From Escherichia coli (GTDB taxonomy: Bacteria > Pseudomonadota > Gammaproteobacteria > Enterobacterales > Enterobacteriaceae), in the NCBI RefSeq assembly GCF_003991155.1, contig NZ_CP031293.1: a DNA stretch of 64,000 nucleotides; one strand, 5' to 3'. Shown piece after piece: positions 3,435 to 12,505 of this stretch. Position numbers and translations under genes: made by a program. The notes beneath the pieces were generated by a model. That model had not been told where the DNA came from. It was given only the letters and a program-made list of their open reading frames with translations, and did no database searches. The number at the start of each line of letters is the position of its first letter. Position 1 is the first letter of the stretch.

Positions 3435-4838
3435 ATGTCTGACCATAATCCACTGACATTAAGACTGAATCTGCGGGAAAAAATCGCCTATGGTATGGGC
3501 GACGTCGGTTCGAATTTAATGCTCTGCATCGGTACTCTGTATCTCCTCAAATTTTATACCGATGAATTAGGGATGCCTGCTTACTATGGCGGGATTATCT
3601 TTCTGGTGGCGAAGTTTTTTACCGCATTTACCGATATGCTCACCGGATTTTTACTCGACTCGCGGAAAAATATTGGGCCTAAAGGCAAATTTCGTCCCTT
3701 TATTTTATATGCAGCGGTTCCGGCGGCGTTAATTGCAACGCTCCAGTTTATCGCCACCACCTTTAGTTTGCCGGTTAAAACGACGATTGCCACCGCACTG
3801 TTTATGATGTTTGGACTTTCATACAGTCTGATGAACTGCTCGTATGGTGCGATGATCCCGGCCATTACCAAAAACCCCAATGAGCGCGCGCAGCTCGCGG
3901 CTTACCGCCAGGGTGGTGCAACCATAGGGCTATTGATTTGTACCGTGGCGTTTATTCCGTTGCAGTCGCTTTTTTCTGACTCAACCGTCGGTTATGCCTG
4001 TGCGGCACTGATGTTCTCCATTGGCGGCTTTATTTTTATGATGCTGTGCTACAGAGGCGTCAAAGAGCATTATGTGGACACGACGCCAACCGGACATAAG
4101 GCCAGTATTCTCAAATCATTTTGCGCGATATTTCATAATCCACCTTTGCTGGTATTGTGCATTGCTAACCTGTGTACTCTGGCGGCATTTAATATCAAAC
4201 TGGCGATTCAGGTCTATTACACCCAGTATGTGCTAAATGATATTAATTTATTGTCGTGGATGGGATTCTTCAGTATGGGATGCATCCTCGTCGGCGTATT
4301 ACTGGTGCCATTAACTGTAAAATATTTTGGTAAAAAACAGGTTTATTTAGCTGGCATGGTGCTGTGGGCGGTTGGTGATATCCTGAATTATTTCTGGGGA
4401 AGTAACTCTTTCACTTTCGTCATGTTCTCTTGTGTCGCCTTTTTTGGCACGGCCTTTGTAAACAGCCTGAACTGGGCACTGGTGCCAGATACCGTAGATT
4501 ACGGTGAATGGAAAACCGGTATTCGTGCCGAAGGTTCTGTTTATACCGGTTATACCTTCTTTCGTAAAATTTCTGCCGCACTTGCTGGCTTCTTGCCAGG
4601 CATTATGCTGACGCAAATAGGTTATGTTCCCAACATCGCGCAAAGTGATGCGACATTACAGGGTTTGCGTCAGCTCATTTTTATCTGGCCTTGTGCACTG
4701 GCAATTATTGCTGCATTGACGATGGGATTCTTTTACACACTCAATGAAAAACGGTTTGCACTGATTATTGAGGAAATTAACCAACGCAAAAATAAAGAAA
4801 TTGAGACAGAAGAAAAAACGGCTTCCGTAACGTTATAA
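3435..4838 (+). CDS. yihO: GPH-family transporter (sulfoquinovose importer in K-12)
   Basis: ORF 3429..4838; ATG at 3435 preceded by AAGGAG; paralogous to yihP. Confidence 0.85.
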   Translation: MSDHNPLTLRLNLREKIAYGMGDVGSNLMLCIGTLYLLKFYTDELGMPAYYGGIIFLVAKFFTAFTDMLTGFLLDSRKNIGPKGKFRPFILYAAVPAALIATLQFIATTFSLPVKTTIATALFMMFGLSYSLMNCSYGAMIPAITKNPNERAQLAAYRQGGATIGLLICTVAFIPLQSLFSDSTVGYACAALMFSIGGFIFMMLCYRGVKEHYVDTTPTGHKASILKSFCAIFHNPPLLVLCIANLCTLAAFNIKLAIQVYYTQYVLNDINLLSWMGFFSMGCILVGVLLVPLTVKYFGKKQVYLAGMVLWAVGDILNYFWGSNSFTFVMFSCVAFFGTAFVNSLNWALVPDTVDYGEWKTGIRAEGSVYTGYTFFRKISAALAGFLPGIMLTQIGYVPNIAQSDATLQGLRQLIFIWPCALAIIAALTMGFFYTLNEKRFALIIEEINQRKNKEIETEEKTASVTL

Positions 4839-7055: not shown

Positions 7056-8036
7056 TTAGTGGTTCAGAAGATGGTTTGCCTCTTGTTTGATTTGTTGTAG
7101 TACGTTACGCACATGATTTATCTGATTAATTGCATCTTCTTTTTCTTTACGTAACCGCGCATCCAGTAAATGATTTTCTGGCAATGGTGTTTCACTCATC
7201 TGGCGATAAGGGATCCACGGATTATCATCTTCGTCTTCAAAGCGGAACGCCGGCGCATAGTAATCAACCTCTTCTTCCAGGCCATATGCCGTCACCTGCG
7301 GCTCATCATCACCCAGGCATATAAGGTGCGTTAATAACGCTTTGAACGGCATATCACCCTGACCTGAAATACAGGCTTTATGACCCAGGCCACCCGGTTC
7401 TTTAACGATCAAGGCATCTTTGATATGGACCTGGGTAATATGCGGTGCCATCGTTTTTAAAGCGTCGATGGGATGCTCATTTGCATTGATCATGTTCGCA
7501 AAATCAAACAGTAAGGAAAGAGATTCCATCTCACTTTCTTTGACCAGCGACACCAGCTCATGACTTTTTAAATCTTCATGCTGCTCGATCGTAAAAGTCA
7601 GGCCGCTGTCCTGATACGTTTCCCGTACATAGGCAATGTCGTTAGCGATAATCGATAATACATCGCGCAAATTACCTTCATAACGCGGATAAAAACGTAC
7701 GGAGGATGCCCCAGTTTTCAACGCGATGGCGACGGCTTCGTCAATAGATTTTTTATCTGAGGCGCTGGTTTCAATATGAATATCAAGGTTCAGACGGCGG
7801 GCTTTATCCCCAAAGGCAGAGAGTTCTTTATCGTCCATATTACCAAGAGAAAAACGCTCTCCATCCAGAACATGGATTTTGACGCCACGTAGATTATTTT
7901 CACTTGCGATATCAAGTAAATCAGCAGGCAACACTCTTTCCAGTCGCATATTTAAATGAAAGGCATAAGCATGTAAATAAAGAGGAAGAGTGTCGACACG
8001 TTGTAGAATCTTTCTTGCGTTATTTATTGTCACCAT
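7056..8036 (-). CDS. yihM: Sugar-phosphate isomerase/epimerase-like (TIM-barrel) protein
   Basis: 326-aa ORF; conserved synteny with yihL and yihN. Confidence 0.8.
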   Translation of the reverse strand: MVTINNARKILQRVDTLPLYLHAYAFHLNMRLERVLPADLLDIASENNLRGVKIHVLDGERFSLGNMDDKELSAFGDKARRLNLDIHIETSASDKKSIDEAVAIALKTGASSVRFYPRYEGNLRDVLSIIANDIAYVRETYQDSGLTFTIEQHEDLKSHELVSLVKESEMESLSLLFDFANMINANEHPIDALKTMAPHITQVHIKDALIVKEPGGLGHKACISGQGDMPFKALLTHLICLGDDEPQVTAYGLEEEVDYYAPAFRFEDEDDNPWIPYRQMSETPLPENHLLDARLRKEKEDAINQINHVRNVLQQIKQEANHLLNH

Positions 8037-8043
8037 AAAACAC

Positions 8044-8754
8044 CTACAGATTAATGATGAGGTCTACGGCCTCAAATCGCCAATATTCAATATCTATCTG
8101 GACAATATTGCCCTGCTGGTCGGCGCGATGCTTTTCAATTAAGATCGCTGGCATACCCGCAGAACCGCCAAGATACTTGCTGATATCGCCCGGCATTCTG
8201 ACGGGTTTGAAAATCAATTTTTTTACTACCGTCTCTTTTTGGTAGCACTTTTCCCAGACTGCAGAAAATGAGTGGTTTTCAAGTTGTTCAATAAAACCCG
8301 GGGCAACTTCAGGATTAATATATGTTTCGTGATAGAAAACTTTATGTCCTTCCAGCGCCCCCCAGCCGGTGATGCGATAGAGTTCAGTTGATGGTGTCAC
8401 TGCAATCAGTGGCGCGAGCGTCTCGGGAATATCGCTGGTACGGTTTTTCTCGGTAAACCCCCAGGAAGGCTCTCGTCCTTGCTCAATTGCGGCCCGCTGA
8501 AAGCTCGCTGACAGCTCCGGACTGTAATTAAATCGCGGCTGGGTCACGAACCACCCCTTACGATCCTTACGGAAGATTTTGGATTCTGCCTCGAGGTTCA
8601 ACAACGCCTGGCGCAGCGTCATACGTTTAATGCCCAGCAGTTCTCCCAGCTCTCTTTCTGAAGGGAGTTTTCCACCCGGCGTGGTGATGCCATCTTTCAA
8701 CCACCGATCCAGTTTCTCTTTTGCATTTTCTACGGTGGATTGATTCTCCGCCAT
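8044..8754 (-). CDS. yihL: GntR-family transcriptional regulator
   Basis: 236-aa ORF with N-terminal wHTH motif (ERELGELLGIKRMTLRQAL) and C-terminal effector domain. Confidence 0.85.
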   Translation of the reverse strand: MAENQSTVENAKEKLDRWLKDGITTPGGKLPSERELGELLGIKRMTLRQALLNLEAESKIFRKDRKGWFVTQPRFNYSPELSASFQRAAIEQGREPSWGFTEKNRTSDIPETLAPLIAVTPSTELYRITGWGALEGHKVFYHETYINPEVAPGFIEQLENHSFSAVWEKCYQKETVVKKLIFKPVRMPGDISKYLGGSAGMPAILIEKHRADQQGNIVQIDIEYWRFEAVDLIINL

Positions 8755-8932
8755 TGTTTAATCCTTTTGGTTTAAACCAGATGAAGCATCTTACGCTTAC
8801 GCCAAAAAAGAAAGCAATTAACGGTGTATGACTTTGCAGATAATTGTGACAAAGCTCTCTATTGACGTAATCACAGACTTATAAGGGAGATACTCGCATT
8901 GGTGTGCGCTCACGACAGGTAAAAAAAAACCT

Positions 8933-8944
8933 GCCAGCGATGGC
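8933..8944. repeat. Target-site duplication (left copy), gccagcgatggc
   Basis: Exact 12-bp direct repeat flanking the IS at 8933-8944 and 10371-10382. Confidence 0.8.
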
Positions 8945-10370
8945 TAATGCCAGTCAGTTAAGCAACTGACTGGCTCTTTTTCGGGGCTGTGGGGTATTTC
9001 CAGGGCCTCTCCTTTACCACTCTCGGGAAGGCCCTTTCCCTTCTTGTCGGTAATTTCACAAGTTGTCCCATACTTGCAAGATCGCGCATCAGCTCCGGTA
9101 TACGTCCCGGTGAAGCGCCCTGCAATGTCATCAGCATTCTCATCACCATTCCGCATGATTCTGAGAAACTCAGTTGATTCGGCCAGTAACCTTTCAGATG
9201 TTCCGCCATTTTAATCATCTGATATCTCACCAGATTATAAGCCAGTAAGACACCCCACAGCTCTTGCTCCACAAGCTCCGGTTTTTTACTTCTCAGCGTC
9301 AGCCTGCTCAGTTGCATCGTCTGTTTTATCTCCCTGTATCCCAGTTCGATTTCCCAGCGATGACTGTACAGATCCGCCATTTCTCCTCCGGGGAAGCGCA
9401 TGGCGTCCGTCATCGACGTCAGCAGATGGCAGACTTTTCCTTTGCGCGTCACGGTCAGCAGGCGGGCTGTCACTTCATTTCCCAGTCCCGGCCACTTTTT
9501 TCGTGCCTGCGGGCTGGTTTTCAGCTTCACCAGATGATCGCCTTTACCCAGTTTTCTGATCTCTTCATATTGCGCTCCCTTTCTGAGAGGTATCATCCAG
9601 TGGCGGTGTTCTCCCGCCAGGCTCCAGGCATTTAACAGTCCCAGTGAGTAATAACCTTTATCCATTAACGTCAGAGTGTTATCGCCGGTTTGTTCTATAA
9701 GTTGCTCAGCAAGCTCATTTTCGCTGTTCTTCATCGTGCCGAAGGCTGCAGCCGTCAGCAGATGGCTGGTCAGTTCCATCTGGCAGACCATTTTGACCTG
9801 CGGGTAGAGCGCCGGGTTCCCGGCATGTGTCTGGCGGGGGAAGGCTGCATCGTTCTCTGGTGTATCCGGTGTGCGCCAGAACACACCATCGATGGCCAGC
9901 AAGGTCAGGCCGCACCAGTGCGGATGCGGCGTGGCGTTATGCCAGAGCTGCGCTGTTTTCGTGAACACGCGGCGGACAGCCTCACTTCCCAGGCGCTGGC
10001 GGGCCTGAATAACGGCACTGGGGGCAACGAAGGGGCGATTGCCCGGCAGCATGATGTCCAGGCGATTCACAATCTGGTGAAGAGGTTCTTTACGCTCAAG
10101 CGCCATGCCAACAATACACCAGACCATCATTTCGAGGGGAAGACGGCGCTTGCGTAGCGTTACAGTACCTGATTCGGCAAGGCAACGAGAGATGAGTTCG
10201 GGGTCGAGGTAATCCCCCAGAGAAGTCAGTGGGTTACGCAGAGAATCGTAACGGGATACCAGATCAAGAGCCTGTCCAATGTGCATAAAAAAATCCGGAA
10301 ACAAGTGAGCGTTTCCGGATTCTTACACAGCCACTGGATCGGTCAACTGATCCTTAACTGATCGGCATTA
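8945..10370 (-). mobile_element. IS4-type insertion sequence, 1426 bp, apparently intact
   Basis: Single long transposase ORF; imperfect terminal inverted repeats TAATGCCAGTCAGTTAAG (left) and CTTAACTGATCGGCATTA (right, i.e. TAATGCCGATCAGTTAAG in reverse complement); flanked by 12-bp direct repeat; length matches IS4 as recalled. Confidence 0.85.
8958..10286 (-). CDS. insG: IS4-family (DDE) transposase, 442 aa
   Basis: ORF 8958..10304 (track start is TTG); first ATG gives [16 protein letters not shown]...; sequence recognised as the E. coli IS4 transposase. Confidence 0.85.
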
Positions 10371-10382
10371 GCCAGCGATGGC
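10371..10382. repeat. Target-site duplication (right copy), gccagcgatggc
   Basis: Identical to 8933-8944. Confidence 0.8.
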
Positions 10383-10408
10383 AGGTTTTTTATAACTAAA
10401 AAACGAAA

Positions 10409-12232
10409 TTAATCGTCTTTCGGTGCGCGGTTGGCGCGACGACGATCGTTTTCCGTCAGGTGACGTTTACGAATACGGATAGAGGTCGGAGTCACTTCTA
10501 CCAGTTCGTCATCATCGATGAACTCCAGAGCTTGTTCCAGAGTCATGCGGATAGGCGGAACCAGAACAACGGCTTCGTCAGTACCGGAAGCACGCATGTT
10601 GGTCAGTTTCTTACCGGTCAGGCAGTTTACAGTCAGGTCGTTAGAGCGGCTGTGAATGCCGATAATCTGACCTTCGTAAACTTCTGCACCGTGACCGAGG
10701 AACAGCTTACCGCGGTCCTGCAGACCGAACAGCGCGAACGCTACCGCTTTACCCTGACCGTTAGAGATCAGTACGCCGTTCTGACGCTGACCCACTTCAC
10801 CCGGACGTACGTCGTCGTAGTGGCTGAAGGTGGAGTACAGCAGACCAGTACCGGAAGTCATGGTCATGAACTCAGAACGGAAGCCAATCAGACCACGGCT
10901 TGGGATCACGTAGTCGAGACGTACGCGGCCTTTACCGTCTGGATTCATGTTTTTCAGGTCGCCTTTACGTTCGCCCAGCGCCTGCATCACAGAACCCTGA
11001 TGCTGTTCTTCAACGTCCAGCGTCACGTTTTCATACGGCTCTTGTTTACGACCGTCGATTTCACGGAAGATTACTTTCGGACGGGATACCGCCAGTTCGA
11101 AACCTTCACGACGCATGTTTTCAATAAGAACAGACAGGTGCAGTTCGCCACGACCAGAAACGCGGAACGCATCGGCGTCTTCGGTTTCTTCTACGCGCAG
11201 CGCAACGTTGTGTACCAGTTCTTTGTTCAGACGATCCAGGATCTGACGAGACGTTACGAACTTACCTTCTTTACCGCAGAACGGCGAGGTGTTAACGCAG
11301 AAGAACATAGAAACGGTCGGCTCATCAACGGAGAGTGCCGGCAGCGCTTCAACGTTTTGCGTGTCGCAAACGGTGTCAGAAATGTTCAGTTCGCCCAGGC
11401 CCGTGATCGCCACGATATCGCCAGCTTCCGCCAGATCGGTTTCAATACGTTCCAGACCGAGGTGGCCCAGCACTTTACCGACTTTCGCGTTACGGGTTTT
11501 GCCTTCGCTATCGATGATAGTGACCTGCTGGTTCGGCTTCACTTTACCGCGCTTGATGCGGCCAATGCCGATAACGCCAACATAGCTGTTGTAATCGAGC
11601 TGAGAAATCTGCATCTGGAACGGACCGTCAAGGTCAACGTCCGGCGCAGGAACGTGGTCAACAATCGCCTGATACAGCGGGGTCATGTCTTCCGCCATAT
11701 CTTCGTGGTCCAGACCCGCGATACCGTTCAGCGCAGAAGCGTAAACGATCGGGAAGTCCAGCTGCTCGTCGGTCGCGTCGAGGTTAACGAACAGATCGAA
11801 TACCTGATCCACAACCCAATCAGGACGCGCGCCAGGGCGGTCAACTTTGTTGATAACAACAATCGGCTTCAGGCCGTAAGCAAACGCTTTTTTGGTTACG
11901 AAGCGCGTTTGCGGCATCGGGCCGTCAAATGCGTCAACCACCAGCAGCACTGAGTCTACCATGGACATTACACGTTCAACTTCACCACCGAAGTCGGCGT
12001 GCCCCGGGGTATCAACGATGTTGATACGGTAATCATTCCATTTGATAGCGGTGTTTTTCGCGAGGATGGTAATCCCACGCTCTTTCTCCAAATCGTTGGA
12101 GTCCATCACGCGCTCTTGGGTTTCGGCACGAGAGTCGAACGTACCGGATTGTTGGAGCAGCTTGTCTACCAGGGTGGTTTTACCATGGTCTACGTGCGCG
12201 ATGATGGCGATATTACGCAATTTTTCGATCAC
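10409..12232 (-). CDS. typA: Ribosome-associated translational GTPase BipA/TypA
   Basis: 607-aa ORF, N-terminal G-domain [13 protein letters not shown]-like domain architecture. Confidence 0.95.
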
Positions 12233-12383
12233 AACTTTGCCTCAGGCATTAGAAATAGCGCGTTATTGTACACGGATTAATCGCACTACAAAACAGGATC
12301 ACAAACATCCTCCGCAAACAAGTATTGCAGAGTCCCTTTGTGATCGCTTTCACGGAGCATAAAAAGGGTTATCCAAAGGTCAT

Positions 12384-12462
12384 TGCACCAACATGGTGCT
12401 TAATGTTTCCATTGAAGCACTATATTGGTGCAACATTCACATCATGGTGCAGCCCTTTTGCA
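12384..12462 (+). promoter_or_regulatory. NtrC (NRI) enhancer sites upstream of glnA
   Basis: TGCACCAacatGGTGCt (12384-12400), GCACtatatTGGTGCA (12417-12433) and a third GGTGCA..TTGCAC element, matching the TGCACC-N5-GGTGCA consensus. Confidence 0.75.
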
Positions 12463-12505
12463 CGATGTTAAGCATGATAACGCCTTTTAGGGGCAATTTA
12501 AAAGT

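Follow-up and report, generated by a model that had tools for sequence, protein, structure and literature searches.

What brings an insertion sequence (IS) to the exact centre of a transcription terminator, and what does its arrival mean for the genes on either side? The question is raised by a stretch of Escherichia coli DNA of 64,000 nucleotides (contig NZ_CP031293.1, called the window in what follows), in which an IS4 element lies between typA (bipA) and yihL, inside a hairpin just beyond the end of typA. We consider it highly probable that a complete and probably active IS4 transposed into the centre of the typA terminator by target preference, and that the net effect of the insertion is nearly neutral.

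The block that separates typA from yihL, read directly from the sequence, occupies positions 8945-10370 and is exactly 1426 bp in length. It aligns from end to end and without gaps with the 1426-bp IS4 of K-12 MG1655, with five mismatches (99.65% identity), and its 18-bp terminal inverted repeats, TAATGCCAGTCAGTTAAG and TAATGCCGATCAGTTAAG, match at 16 of 18 positions. The ends of IS4 have been described as 18-bp imperfect inverted repeats beginning -AATR (PMC2266710, Table 1), and the length of ~1426 bp, an identity above 95% and the 18-bp imperfect ends are those by which IS4 is recognized. A single uninterrupted open reading frame (ORF) runs on the minus strand from 10286 to 8958 and encodes 442 amino acids, two of which differ from K-12 InsG. 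The ORF scores 304.5 bits against the NCBIfam equivalog for IS4 family transposases (NF033592, cut-off 115), so that at the level of the profile it is a single-ORF DDE transposase of the IS4 family, and in identical genomes the gene carries the RefSeq label 'IS4-like element IS4 family transposase'. On either side of the element lies the direct repeat GCCAGCGATGGC, of exactly 12 bp (8933-8944 and 10371-10382), which cannot be extended by a single base in either direction. This falls within the target duplication of 10-13 bp expected of IS4, and other copies have 11 or 12 bp. A 12-bp identity would arise by chance at two fixed boundaries with a probability of ~6e-8, and the junctions recur in 54 independent complete assemblies. 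We conclude that the element in the window is a complete IS4 (IS4 family, subgroup IS4). A preliminary description of this DNA had named the element, its boundaries at 8945 and 10370, the 12-bp duplication and an intact transposase gene co-directional with typA; all of this holds, the two genes both being on the minus strand, and every coordinate given there is correct.

It is the same element as the IS4 of K-12 (insG, b4278), the founder of the IS4 family. The two transposases share 440 of 442 residues, and both copies have a duplication of 12 bp. Unlike the window copy, that of K-12 sits between yjgZ and nanX at a site without an obvious hairpin, AAAT-AGGC-[ATCTTGGTTCTG]-GTG-TTTG, which keeps the A-run and the T-run at the same spacing.

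The nature of the site becomes clear when the element and one copy of the duplication are removed. Joining 8645-8944 to 10383-10682 gives a 600-bp empty site whose centre reads A9-CCTGCC-AGCGAT-GGCAGG-T6, just as the preliminary description had reconstructed it, with a 13-pair hairpin of -20.0 kcal/mol on the plus strand and -18.7 kcal/mol on the minus strand. Of 5426 complete E. coli genomes, 4351 have this 600-bp stretch uninterrupted, K-12 among them, and one (CFSAN061771) has it at 100% identity; ~1000 further genomes match it on the typA half only. CFSAN061771 is identical over the 600 bp but 1.0-1.4% divergent over 40 kb, and for that reason we rejected it as the direct ancestor of the window allele. 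Among the complete E. coli genomes we found neither an IS-free close relative that lacks the hairpin in the typA-yihL spacer nor junctions with other boundaries. In the window itself the half-sites can be read on both sides of IS4, with CCTGCC at 8930-8935, AGCGAT at 8936-8941 and GGC at 8942-8944 of the plus strand on the yihL side, in keeping with the earlier claim that the insertion splits the typA terminator ahead of yihLMN.

The IS-free allele of K-12, the comparison that had been proposed, contains the predicted hairpin. It begins 23 nt after the stop codon of bipA/typA (ATAAAAAACCTGCCAGCGATGGCAGGTTTTTTTTTGCC, i.e. TAA-N23-AAAAAACCTGCCAGCGATGGCAGGTTTTTTTTT) and folds with -20.4 kcal/mol (z = -5.0). 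In the direction of typA the empty allele forms the stem CCUGCCA/UGGCAGG, with seven pairs and a 4-nt loop, followed by U9, as expected of an intrinsic terminator, and the A6 in front of it (A9 on the other strand) makes the hairpin symmetrical. Judged from its sequence, the split hairpin is the symmetrical, two-way intrinsic terminator of typA in textbook form. It might be argued instead that the palindrome is some other structured repeat, for example one resembling repetitive extragenic palindromes (REP), so that the insertion disrupted nothing. Terminator function is here deduced from the sequence, and a consensus scanner is silent at the K-12 site. However, this scanner misses hairpins flanked by an A-run and a T-run, that is, bidirectional ones, since greedy A:U extension of the stem uses up the T-tail; it calls neither the intact K-12 typA terminator (locus L113, 4150-4500) nor a hairpin with U7 inside IS4 that is discussed below (window 8600-10600). 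We therefore rejected the consensus promoter and terminator scan as a way to judge the loss of the terminator. That it is silent at the junctions carries no weight, and the argument rests on folding energies. The G/C-rich stem with its short loop and U9, its position after the stop codon and its folding energy all speak for a terminator, and the sequence occurs once in the 25-kb K-12 region searched, so that it is not a dispersed repeat there. We regard a palindrome without terminator function as extremely unlikely.

The insertion had been presented as a one-off event, and in this respect the preliminary description does not stand. IS4 lies at exactly the same position in 70 of the 5426 genomes (1.3%), co-directional with typA in 54 and inverted in 16, the latter including the reference strains IAI39 and CE10. 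Seventy is also the number of genomes in which the match to the 600-bp empty site is split into two places, and from this agreement it seems that essentially every interruption of the stretch is due to IS4. We read the junctions in 15 sampled carriers, and all have the 12-bp duplication at the same position. They form four classes by orientation and by the allele of the hairpin loop (AGCGAT or ATCGCT in the direction of typA), which are subdivided further by single-nucleotide polymorphisms (SNPs) in the flanks and by ~7 sequence variants of IS4. In each sampled carrier the local loop allele is present in both copies of the duplication, and this is true of both orientations.

Could a single ancestral insertion have spread by homologous recombination to all 70 carriers, at a site that is no hotspot? 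Identity across the junction is 99.8% or higher in 42 carriers, and strains LWY24 and MRY15-117, published under different sequence types (ST93 and ST457), are one base apart in 42 kb, so that clonal descent or transfer does explain part of the distribution. But 16 genomes carry the opposite orientation, the copies of the duplication match the local loop allele whichever way the element faces, and flank SNPs and IS4 variants differ among the groups. An IS cannot be inverted by recombination and still have a perfect duplication of 12 bp. Since both orientations with perfect duplications cannot come from one event, we consider this explanation very unlikely. The junctions point to at least four independent insertions at the typA site, and possibly about ten.

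Over 30.7 kb the window variant and MRY15-117 are 100% identical. That strain was typed as ST457 in its own paper, CREC-544 is likewise ST457, and the carriers with a traceable type comprise three ST457 strains and LWY24, the one published as ST93. The near-identity of LWY24 (locus L114) and MRY15-117 (locus L116) around typA indicates either a large recombinational exchange or a mismatch between typing and record. The two population alleles of the 6-nt centre of the terminator, AGCGAT and ATCGCT, are exact reverse complements and occur in both empty and IS4-bearing sites (window 8936-8941 and 10374-10379; L002, 4014-4019; L113, 4261-4266); this looks like inversion of the loop by template switching at the hairpin rather than two independent point mutations. 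The IS4 variant in the typA terminator of strain 582 shares nine SNPs with a plasmid copy, that of EC1722-1.

The typA terminator is also a boundary of structural variation, since the junctions of two other gene blocks fall there. In ST131-like genomes yihLMN is absent and ompL adjoins the A-run of the same intact hairpin (locus L002, strain 131, 3949-4050), and in another type of genome an STM4011-4015 radical-SAM island abuts typA, with the hairpin deleted between two A-runs (locus L003, UPEC-774U, 3975-4012). In isolate AF14 (NZ_OZ546925.1, locus L008, 1-2545) the typA terminator contains IS4, flanked by a perfect 12-bp duplication, and beyond the A-run there is an inverted block of yihU, a sugar kinase and a DeoR regulator, not yihL. 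The rearrangement ends exactly at the A-run, not at the end of the IS, and a second record (H125) appears to be alike.

Why this position should be struck so often can be seen from the sites that IS4 occupies elsewhere. We collected 68 unique flanks on the side of the left inverted repeat (IRL, at the 5' end of the transposase gene) and 19 on the side of the right one (IRR), by scanning genome and metagenome collections with the 40-nt IRL end and from fetched loci. The scan of the genome collection returned no E. coli representative; most of its matches are contig-end copies from one Kosakonia draft, with flanks on one side only. Positions were numbered outward from the IS end, with random positions in the same loci as background. 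C is found at +1 in 74% of IRL-side (n = 68) and 53% of IRR-side flanks (n = 19), and T at +16 to +20 in 62-88% and 74-89%, respectively. At least five T occur within +15 to +21 in 51% of IRL-side and 63% of IRR-side flanks, compared with 2.9% of random positions, and the ends of the duplication are fully self-complementary in 28% and 53%, compared with 1.4%. The stretch from +9 to +15 is rich in G on either side. Since the profile is the same at the two ends of the IS, the complete target consists of an A-run, then a G/C-rich dyad of ~18 bp, then a T-run. The preferred target of IS4 thus has the anatomy of a two-way rho-independent terminator.

The site in the window has a G/C-rich dyad, with T6 occupying +16 to +21 beyond the IRL and T9 occupying +16 to +24 beyond the IRR. 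It conforms to this profile, and as A9-N18-T6 it is a near-ideal example of an IS4 target. The precision of the insertion therefore reflects target choice by IS4, and nothing special about the strain. A second E. coli example is the terminator of tRNA-Pro (proL), A8-CCAACC-GTAAA-GGTTGG-T8, where IS4 has made an 11-bp duplication centred on the loop. A rule tying the length of the duplication (11 or 12 bp) to the spacing of the A-run and T-run was tried and dropped, as the two-sided sites follow no simple rule.

All of this agrees with the classical properties of IS4, namely the length of its duplication, extreme site selectivity and the use of both orientations. Klaer, Starlinger and co-workers are said to have found, in about 1980-81, a galT hotspot hit by IS4 in both orientations, and Mayaux et al. 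(Gene, 1984) reportedly placed IS4 in the attenuator terminator of pheST and derived the consensus AAA-N20-TTT, a consensus for IS4 targets that we did not find in the searchable literature. The typA site resembles these classical sites in its high specificity, both orientations, duplications of 11-13 bp and the bracket of A-run and T-run, and A9-N18-T6 contains AAA-N20-TTT. It differs from the classical laboratory mutants, which lie at other loci, in that the evidence comes from a whole population, in which 70 natural genomes represent at least four events, and in that the profile of 87 flanks points to terminator hairpins as the usual target. Other elements home to safe sites at terminators or extragenic palindromes: Tn7 at attTn7 behind glmS, IS1397 and ISKpn1 in the palindromes of REP and bacterial interspersed mosaic elements (BIME), and IS231A at a GGG-N5-CCC target flanked by bent A/T tracts. 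Like these, IS4 enters short structured intergenic signals downstream of genes and spares coding sequence. Unlike Tn7 and IS1397, it belongs to a different family, and its motif is A-run, dyad and T-run, not the REP consensus. We know of no accessory targeting protein for IS4.

The survey also brought out several copies of interest in themselves. The plasmid variant of EC1722-1 (locus L111, 2490-4010) occupies the hairpin AAAACCCCCAGC-TAG-GCTGGGGGTT, downstream of etsC, and is flanked by an 11-bp duplication; the site recurs on several plasmids (H147-H150) and metagenome contigs (L040, L056 and L078). Draft contigs of one genome, Kosakonia oryziphila REICA_142 (L014-L029), contain at least 16 contig-end copies in which the 40-nt end is identical to that of E. 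coli IS4; these indicate a recent expansion outside Escherichia, and most of their flanks show the target of hairpin and T-run. Photorhabdus khanii (L013) groups with the Kosakonia loci as a match to the IS4 end outside Escherichia. A 265-bp contig of Methylobacterium mesophilicum NBRC 15688 (L012) has an IS4 end with the flank ATCTTGGTTCTGGTGTTTGTAACAAAC, identical to the chromosomal IS4 site of K-12, and is most likely E. coli contamination of the assembly. Taken together, the multiple independent insertions and the presence of up to ~32 copies per genome suggest, indirectly, that the IS4 of the window is active.

We turn to what the insertion would do to transcription. On the minus strand typA is followed by yihL, yihM and yihN. 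Read in the direction of typA, the half-site next to the gene is A6-CCUGCC-AUCGCU-GGC, followed by IS4 and with no U-tract after it, and the residual fold has -4.7 kcal/mol (z = -0.6). It probably no longer terminates, because its U9 tract now lies across the element. Within IS4, 46-84 nt from the typA-proximal end, there is however the hairpin followed by U7 to which the scanner is blind, with a fold of -23.5 kcal/mol (z = -6.3). The predicted transposase promoter overlaps it. Transcription from this promoter is expected to start near 10312, where the 5' arm of the hairpin ends, and a transcript from 10312 is unstructured (0 kcal/mol). At the other end of the element a second terminator-like hairpin faces inward on the plus strand, with the tail TCTTTTT; transcription that comes in from the yihL side would read it, as would, in the 16 inverted carriers, transcription from typA.

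IS10 and IS50 sequester the start region of the transposase by fold-back in read-through transcripts. The stable hairpin just upstream of the AUG of the IS4 transposase, which would be able to form only in transcripts started outside, resembles that arrangement, and the hairpin, its U7 tract and the overlapping promoter, all predicted, fit the logic of such shielding. In IS4, unlike IS10 and IS50, the hairpin is followed by U7, which gives it the look of a genuine terminator in addition to that of a trap for the ribosome site. The RefSeq start of the transposase is TTG at 10304 (448 amino acids) and that of K-12 insG is ATG at 10286 (442 amino acids); the 448-residue version would begin within the structure of hairpin and U7 (window 10287-10304). 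Three GATC (Dam) sites occur in the first 34 nt of the transposase-proximal end (window 10337-10363, minus strand), one within the inverted repeat and two flanking the predicted -35 hexamer. In this the end resembles the Dam-controlled ends of IS10 and IS50.

We predict that most read-through from typA would stop ~80 nt inside IS4, before the ATG of the transposase, leaving yihL insulated. The 3' untranslated region of typA would be expected to lengthen by ~80 nt and the expression of yihLMN to change little. The 190 bp upstream of yihL are intact despite the insertion, and a constitutive RpoD promoter has been listed in the typA-yihL spacer (PMC3946193); the consensus scan called no promoter in the spacer upstream of yihL (8755..8920). 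The preliminary description had raised typA read-through and altered expression of yihL as possible consequences. These are legitimate questions, but the effects are probably smaller than was implied. A small expected effect on typA and yihLMN fits with the fact that the insertion is tolerated in both orientations in many lineages.

Might the insertion instead be adaptive, selected for a changed formation of the typA 3' end or for changed yihLMN expression, with target preference secondary? It recurs at one site, and it is fixed in a lineage spread globally among humans, livestock, pets and water, ST457 strains included. Yet both orientations occur, with different expected polar and promoter effects, and the site matches the general IS4 target profile found at unrelated loci. 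The element has inward-facing terminator-like hairpins at both ends, the coding sequences of typA and yihL and the spacer upstream of yihL are unchanged, and carriers are a small minority of the genomes. We consider an adaptive insertion unlikely.

The coordinates of all these features are collected in the table. An Rfam scan of 8000-12500 gave no match inside IS4 or at its junctions; its sole hit was the ES222 small RNA (RF02755; 135 bits, full length), at 12314-12421 on the minus strand, in the glnA-typA spacer just upstream of the start of typA.

Table. Features at the IS4 insertion between typA and yihL (window coordinates).
Feature	Position	Strand	Basis
yihL (GntR-family regulator), first gene downstream of the insertion	8044..8754	-	ORF; name from identical genomes
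Unaltered spacer upstream of yihL, expected to hold the yihL promoter	8755..8920	-	collinear with the K-12 bipA-yihL spacer
A9 on the plus strand, the U9 tract of the typA terminator on the minus strand; now 1438 bp from the first half of the hairpin	8921..8929	-	sequence; K-12 allele
yihL-side half-site CCTGCC-AGCGAT-GGC, including the left copy of the duplication	8930..8944		sequence
IS4, complete	8945..10370	-	K-12 IS4 alignment and annotation in identical genomes
IRR, 18 bp, end adjoining the transposase 3' end	8945..8962		16/18 match to the other end
Inward terminator-like hairpin at the IRR end; 11-pair stem, 4-nt loop, then TCTTTTTCGG	8949..8984	+	terminator scan; -20.6 kcal/mol, z = -3.7
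IS4 transposase gene (insG type), intact, 442 amino acids; stop codon within the IRR hairpin	8958..10286	-	K-12 InsG comparison; NF033592
Hairpin AAGAAUCCGGAAAC...GUUUCCGGAUU then U7, ending one base before the transposase AUG; predicted inward terminator / ribosome-site trap	10287..10324	-	inverted repeat; fold
Predicted transposase promoter TTGACC-16-AAGAAT with TG extension	10319..10346	-	only promoter-like site in 8600-10600
IRL, 18 bp, transposase 5' end	10353..10370		inverted-repeat comparison
typA-side half-site GCCAGCGATGGC-AGG-T6, including the right copy of the duplication	10371..10391		sequence; T6 = 10386-10391
typA (bipA), intact	10409..12232	-	ORF; WP_000570668.1 annotated in all carriers and non-carriers examined

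The sequence of events that we favour can now be set out. IS4 entered the centre of the typA terminator hairpin, duplicating the 12 central bp, and landed there because the A-tract, the G/C-rich dyad of ~18 bp and the T-tract fit its target preference. The same terminator has been struck independently several times, in one orientation or the other but without any change in the 12 bp duplicated. Transcripts of typA that run into the element would be halted ~80 nt in, at the hairpin and U7 before the transposase AUG, and the promoter of the transposase, by starting transcription inside that hairpin, would escape termination. In inverted insertions the second inward hairpin would do the equivalent job. 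The net effect on expression of typA and yihLMN would be small, and the insertion close to neutral.

Several points weigh against this account. On the yihL side a mini-hairpin of four pairs, AGG and U9 remain after the IRR hairpin, and weak read-out into yihL, driven from the transposase, may be possible past this remnant. Both termination at the IS4 hairpins and the place of the transposase promoter are predicted from sequence only. Between one third and one half of the surveyed flanks have no clear T-run, so that the preference is strong and not absolute, and some of the flanks stem from draft contig ends and recombinant copies. The number of events could be inflated by gene conversion between copies of IS4 or by recombinational transfer of the locus.

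A bolder proposal, which we put forward tentatively and with rather less than even confidence, is that IS4 is a dedicated terminator-homing element, cutting symmetrically around the dyad and bringing one inward terminator at each end, by which insulation is restored in either orientation. The transposase may then be silent to transcription from outside, and the typA terminator may be a natural hotspot with at least four hits at identical 12 bp. The targeting half of this proposal is well supported; the self-insulation half we infer from folding and promoter prediction. Neither terminator homing nor self-insulation of IS4 was found in these terms in the searchable literature, to which the old IS4 papers do not belong. 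A search for IS4 with typA or yihL found nothing linking them, only the listing of the promoter in the spacer, and one for IS4 with 'rho-independent' found nothing relevant.

In kind, the finding is already known, for the element is a known one and its behaviour is consistent with what is known of IS4. What is added here is a population count for one natural hotspot, with 70 of 5426 genomes and at least four events, a quantitative target profile that names bidirectional terminators as the typical target, and the suggestion that two inward-facing terminal hairpins replace the insulation that IS4 destroys. Users of annotation pipelines and simple terminator scanners should take note that a consensus scan misses both the typA terminator and the IS4 hairpin, because A-runs pair with the T-tail. 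The insertion in the window is a near-neutral IS polymorphism of little local importance, usable as a lineage marker. With IS4 one has a convenient natural model for studying how the shape of an A-tract, dyad and T-tract is read by a DDE transposase, and one may also ask whether a terminator destroyed by an IS can be replaced by those that the IS brings with it.

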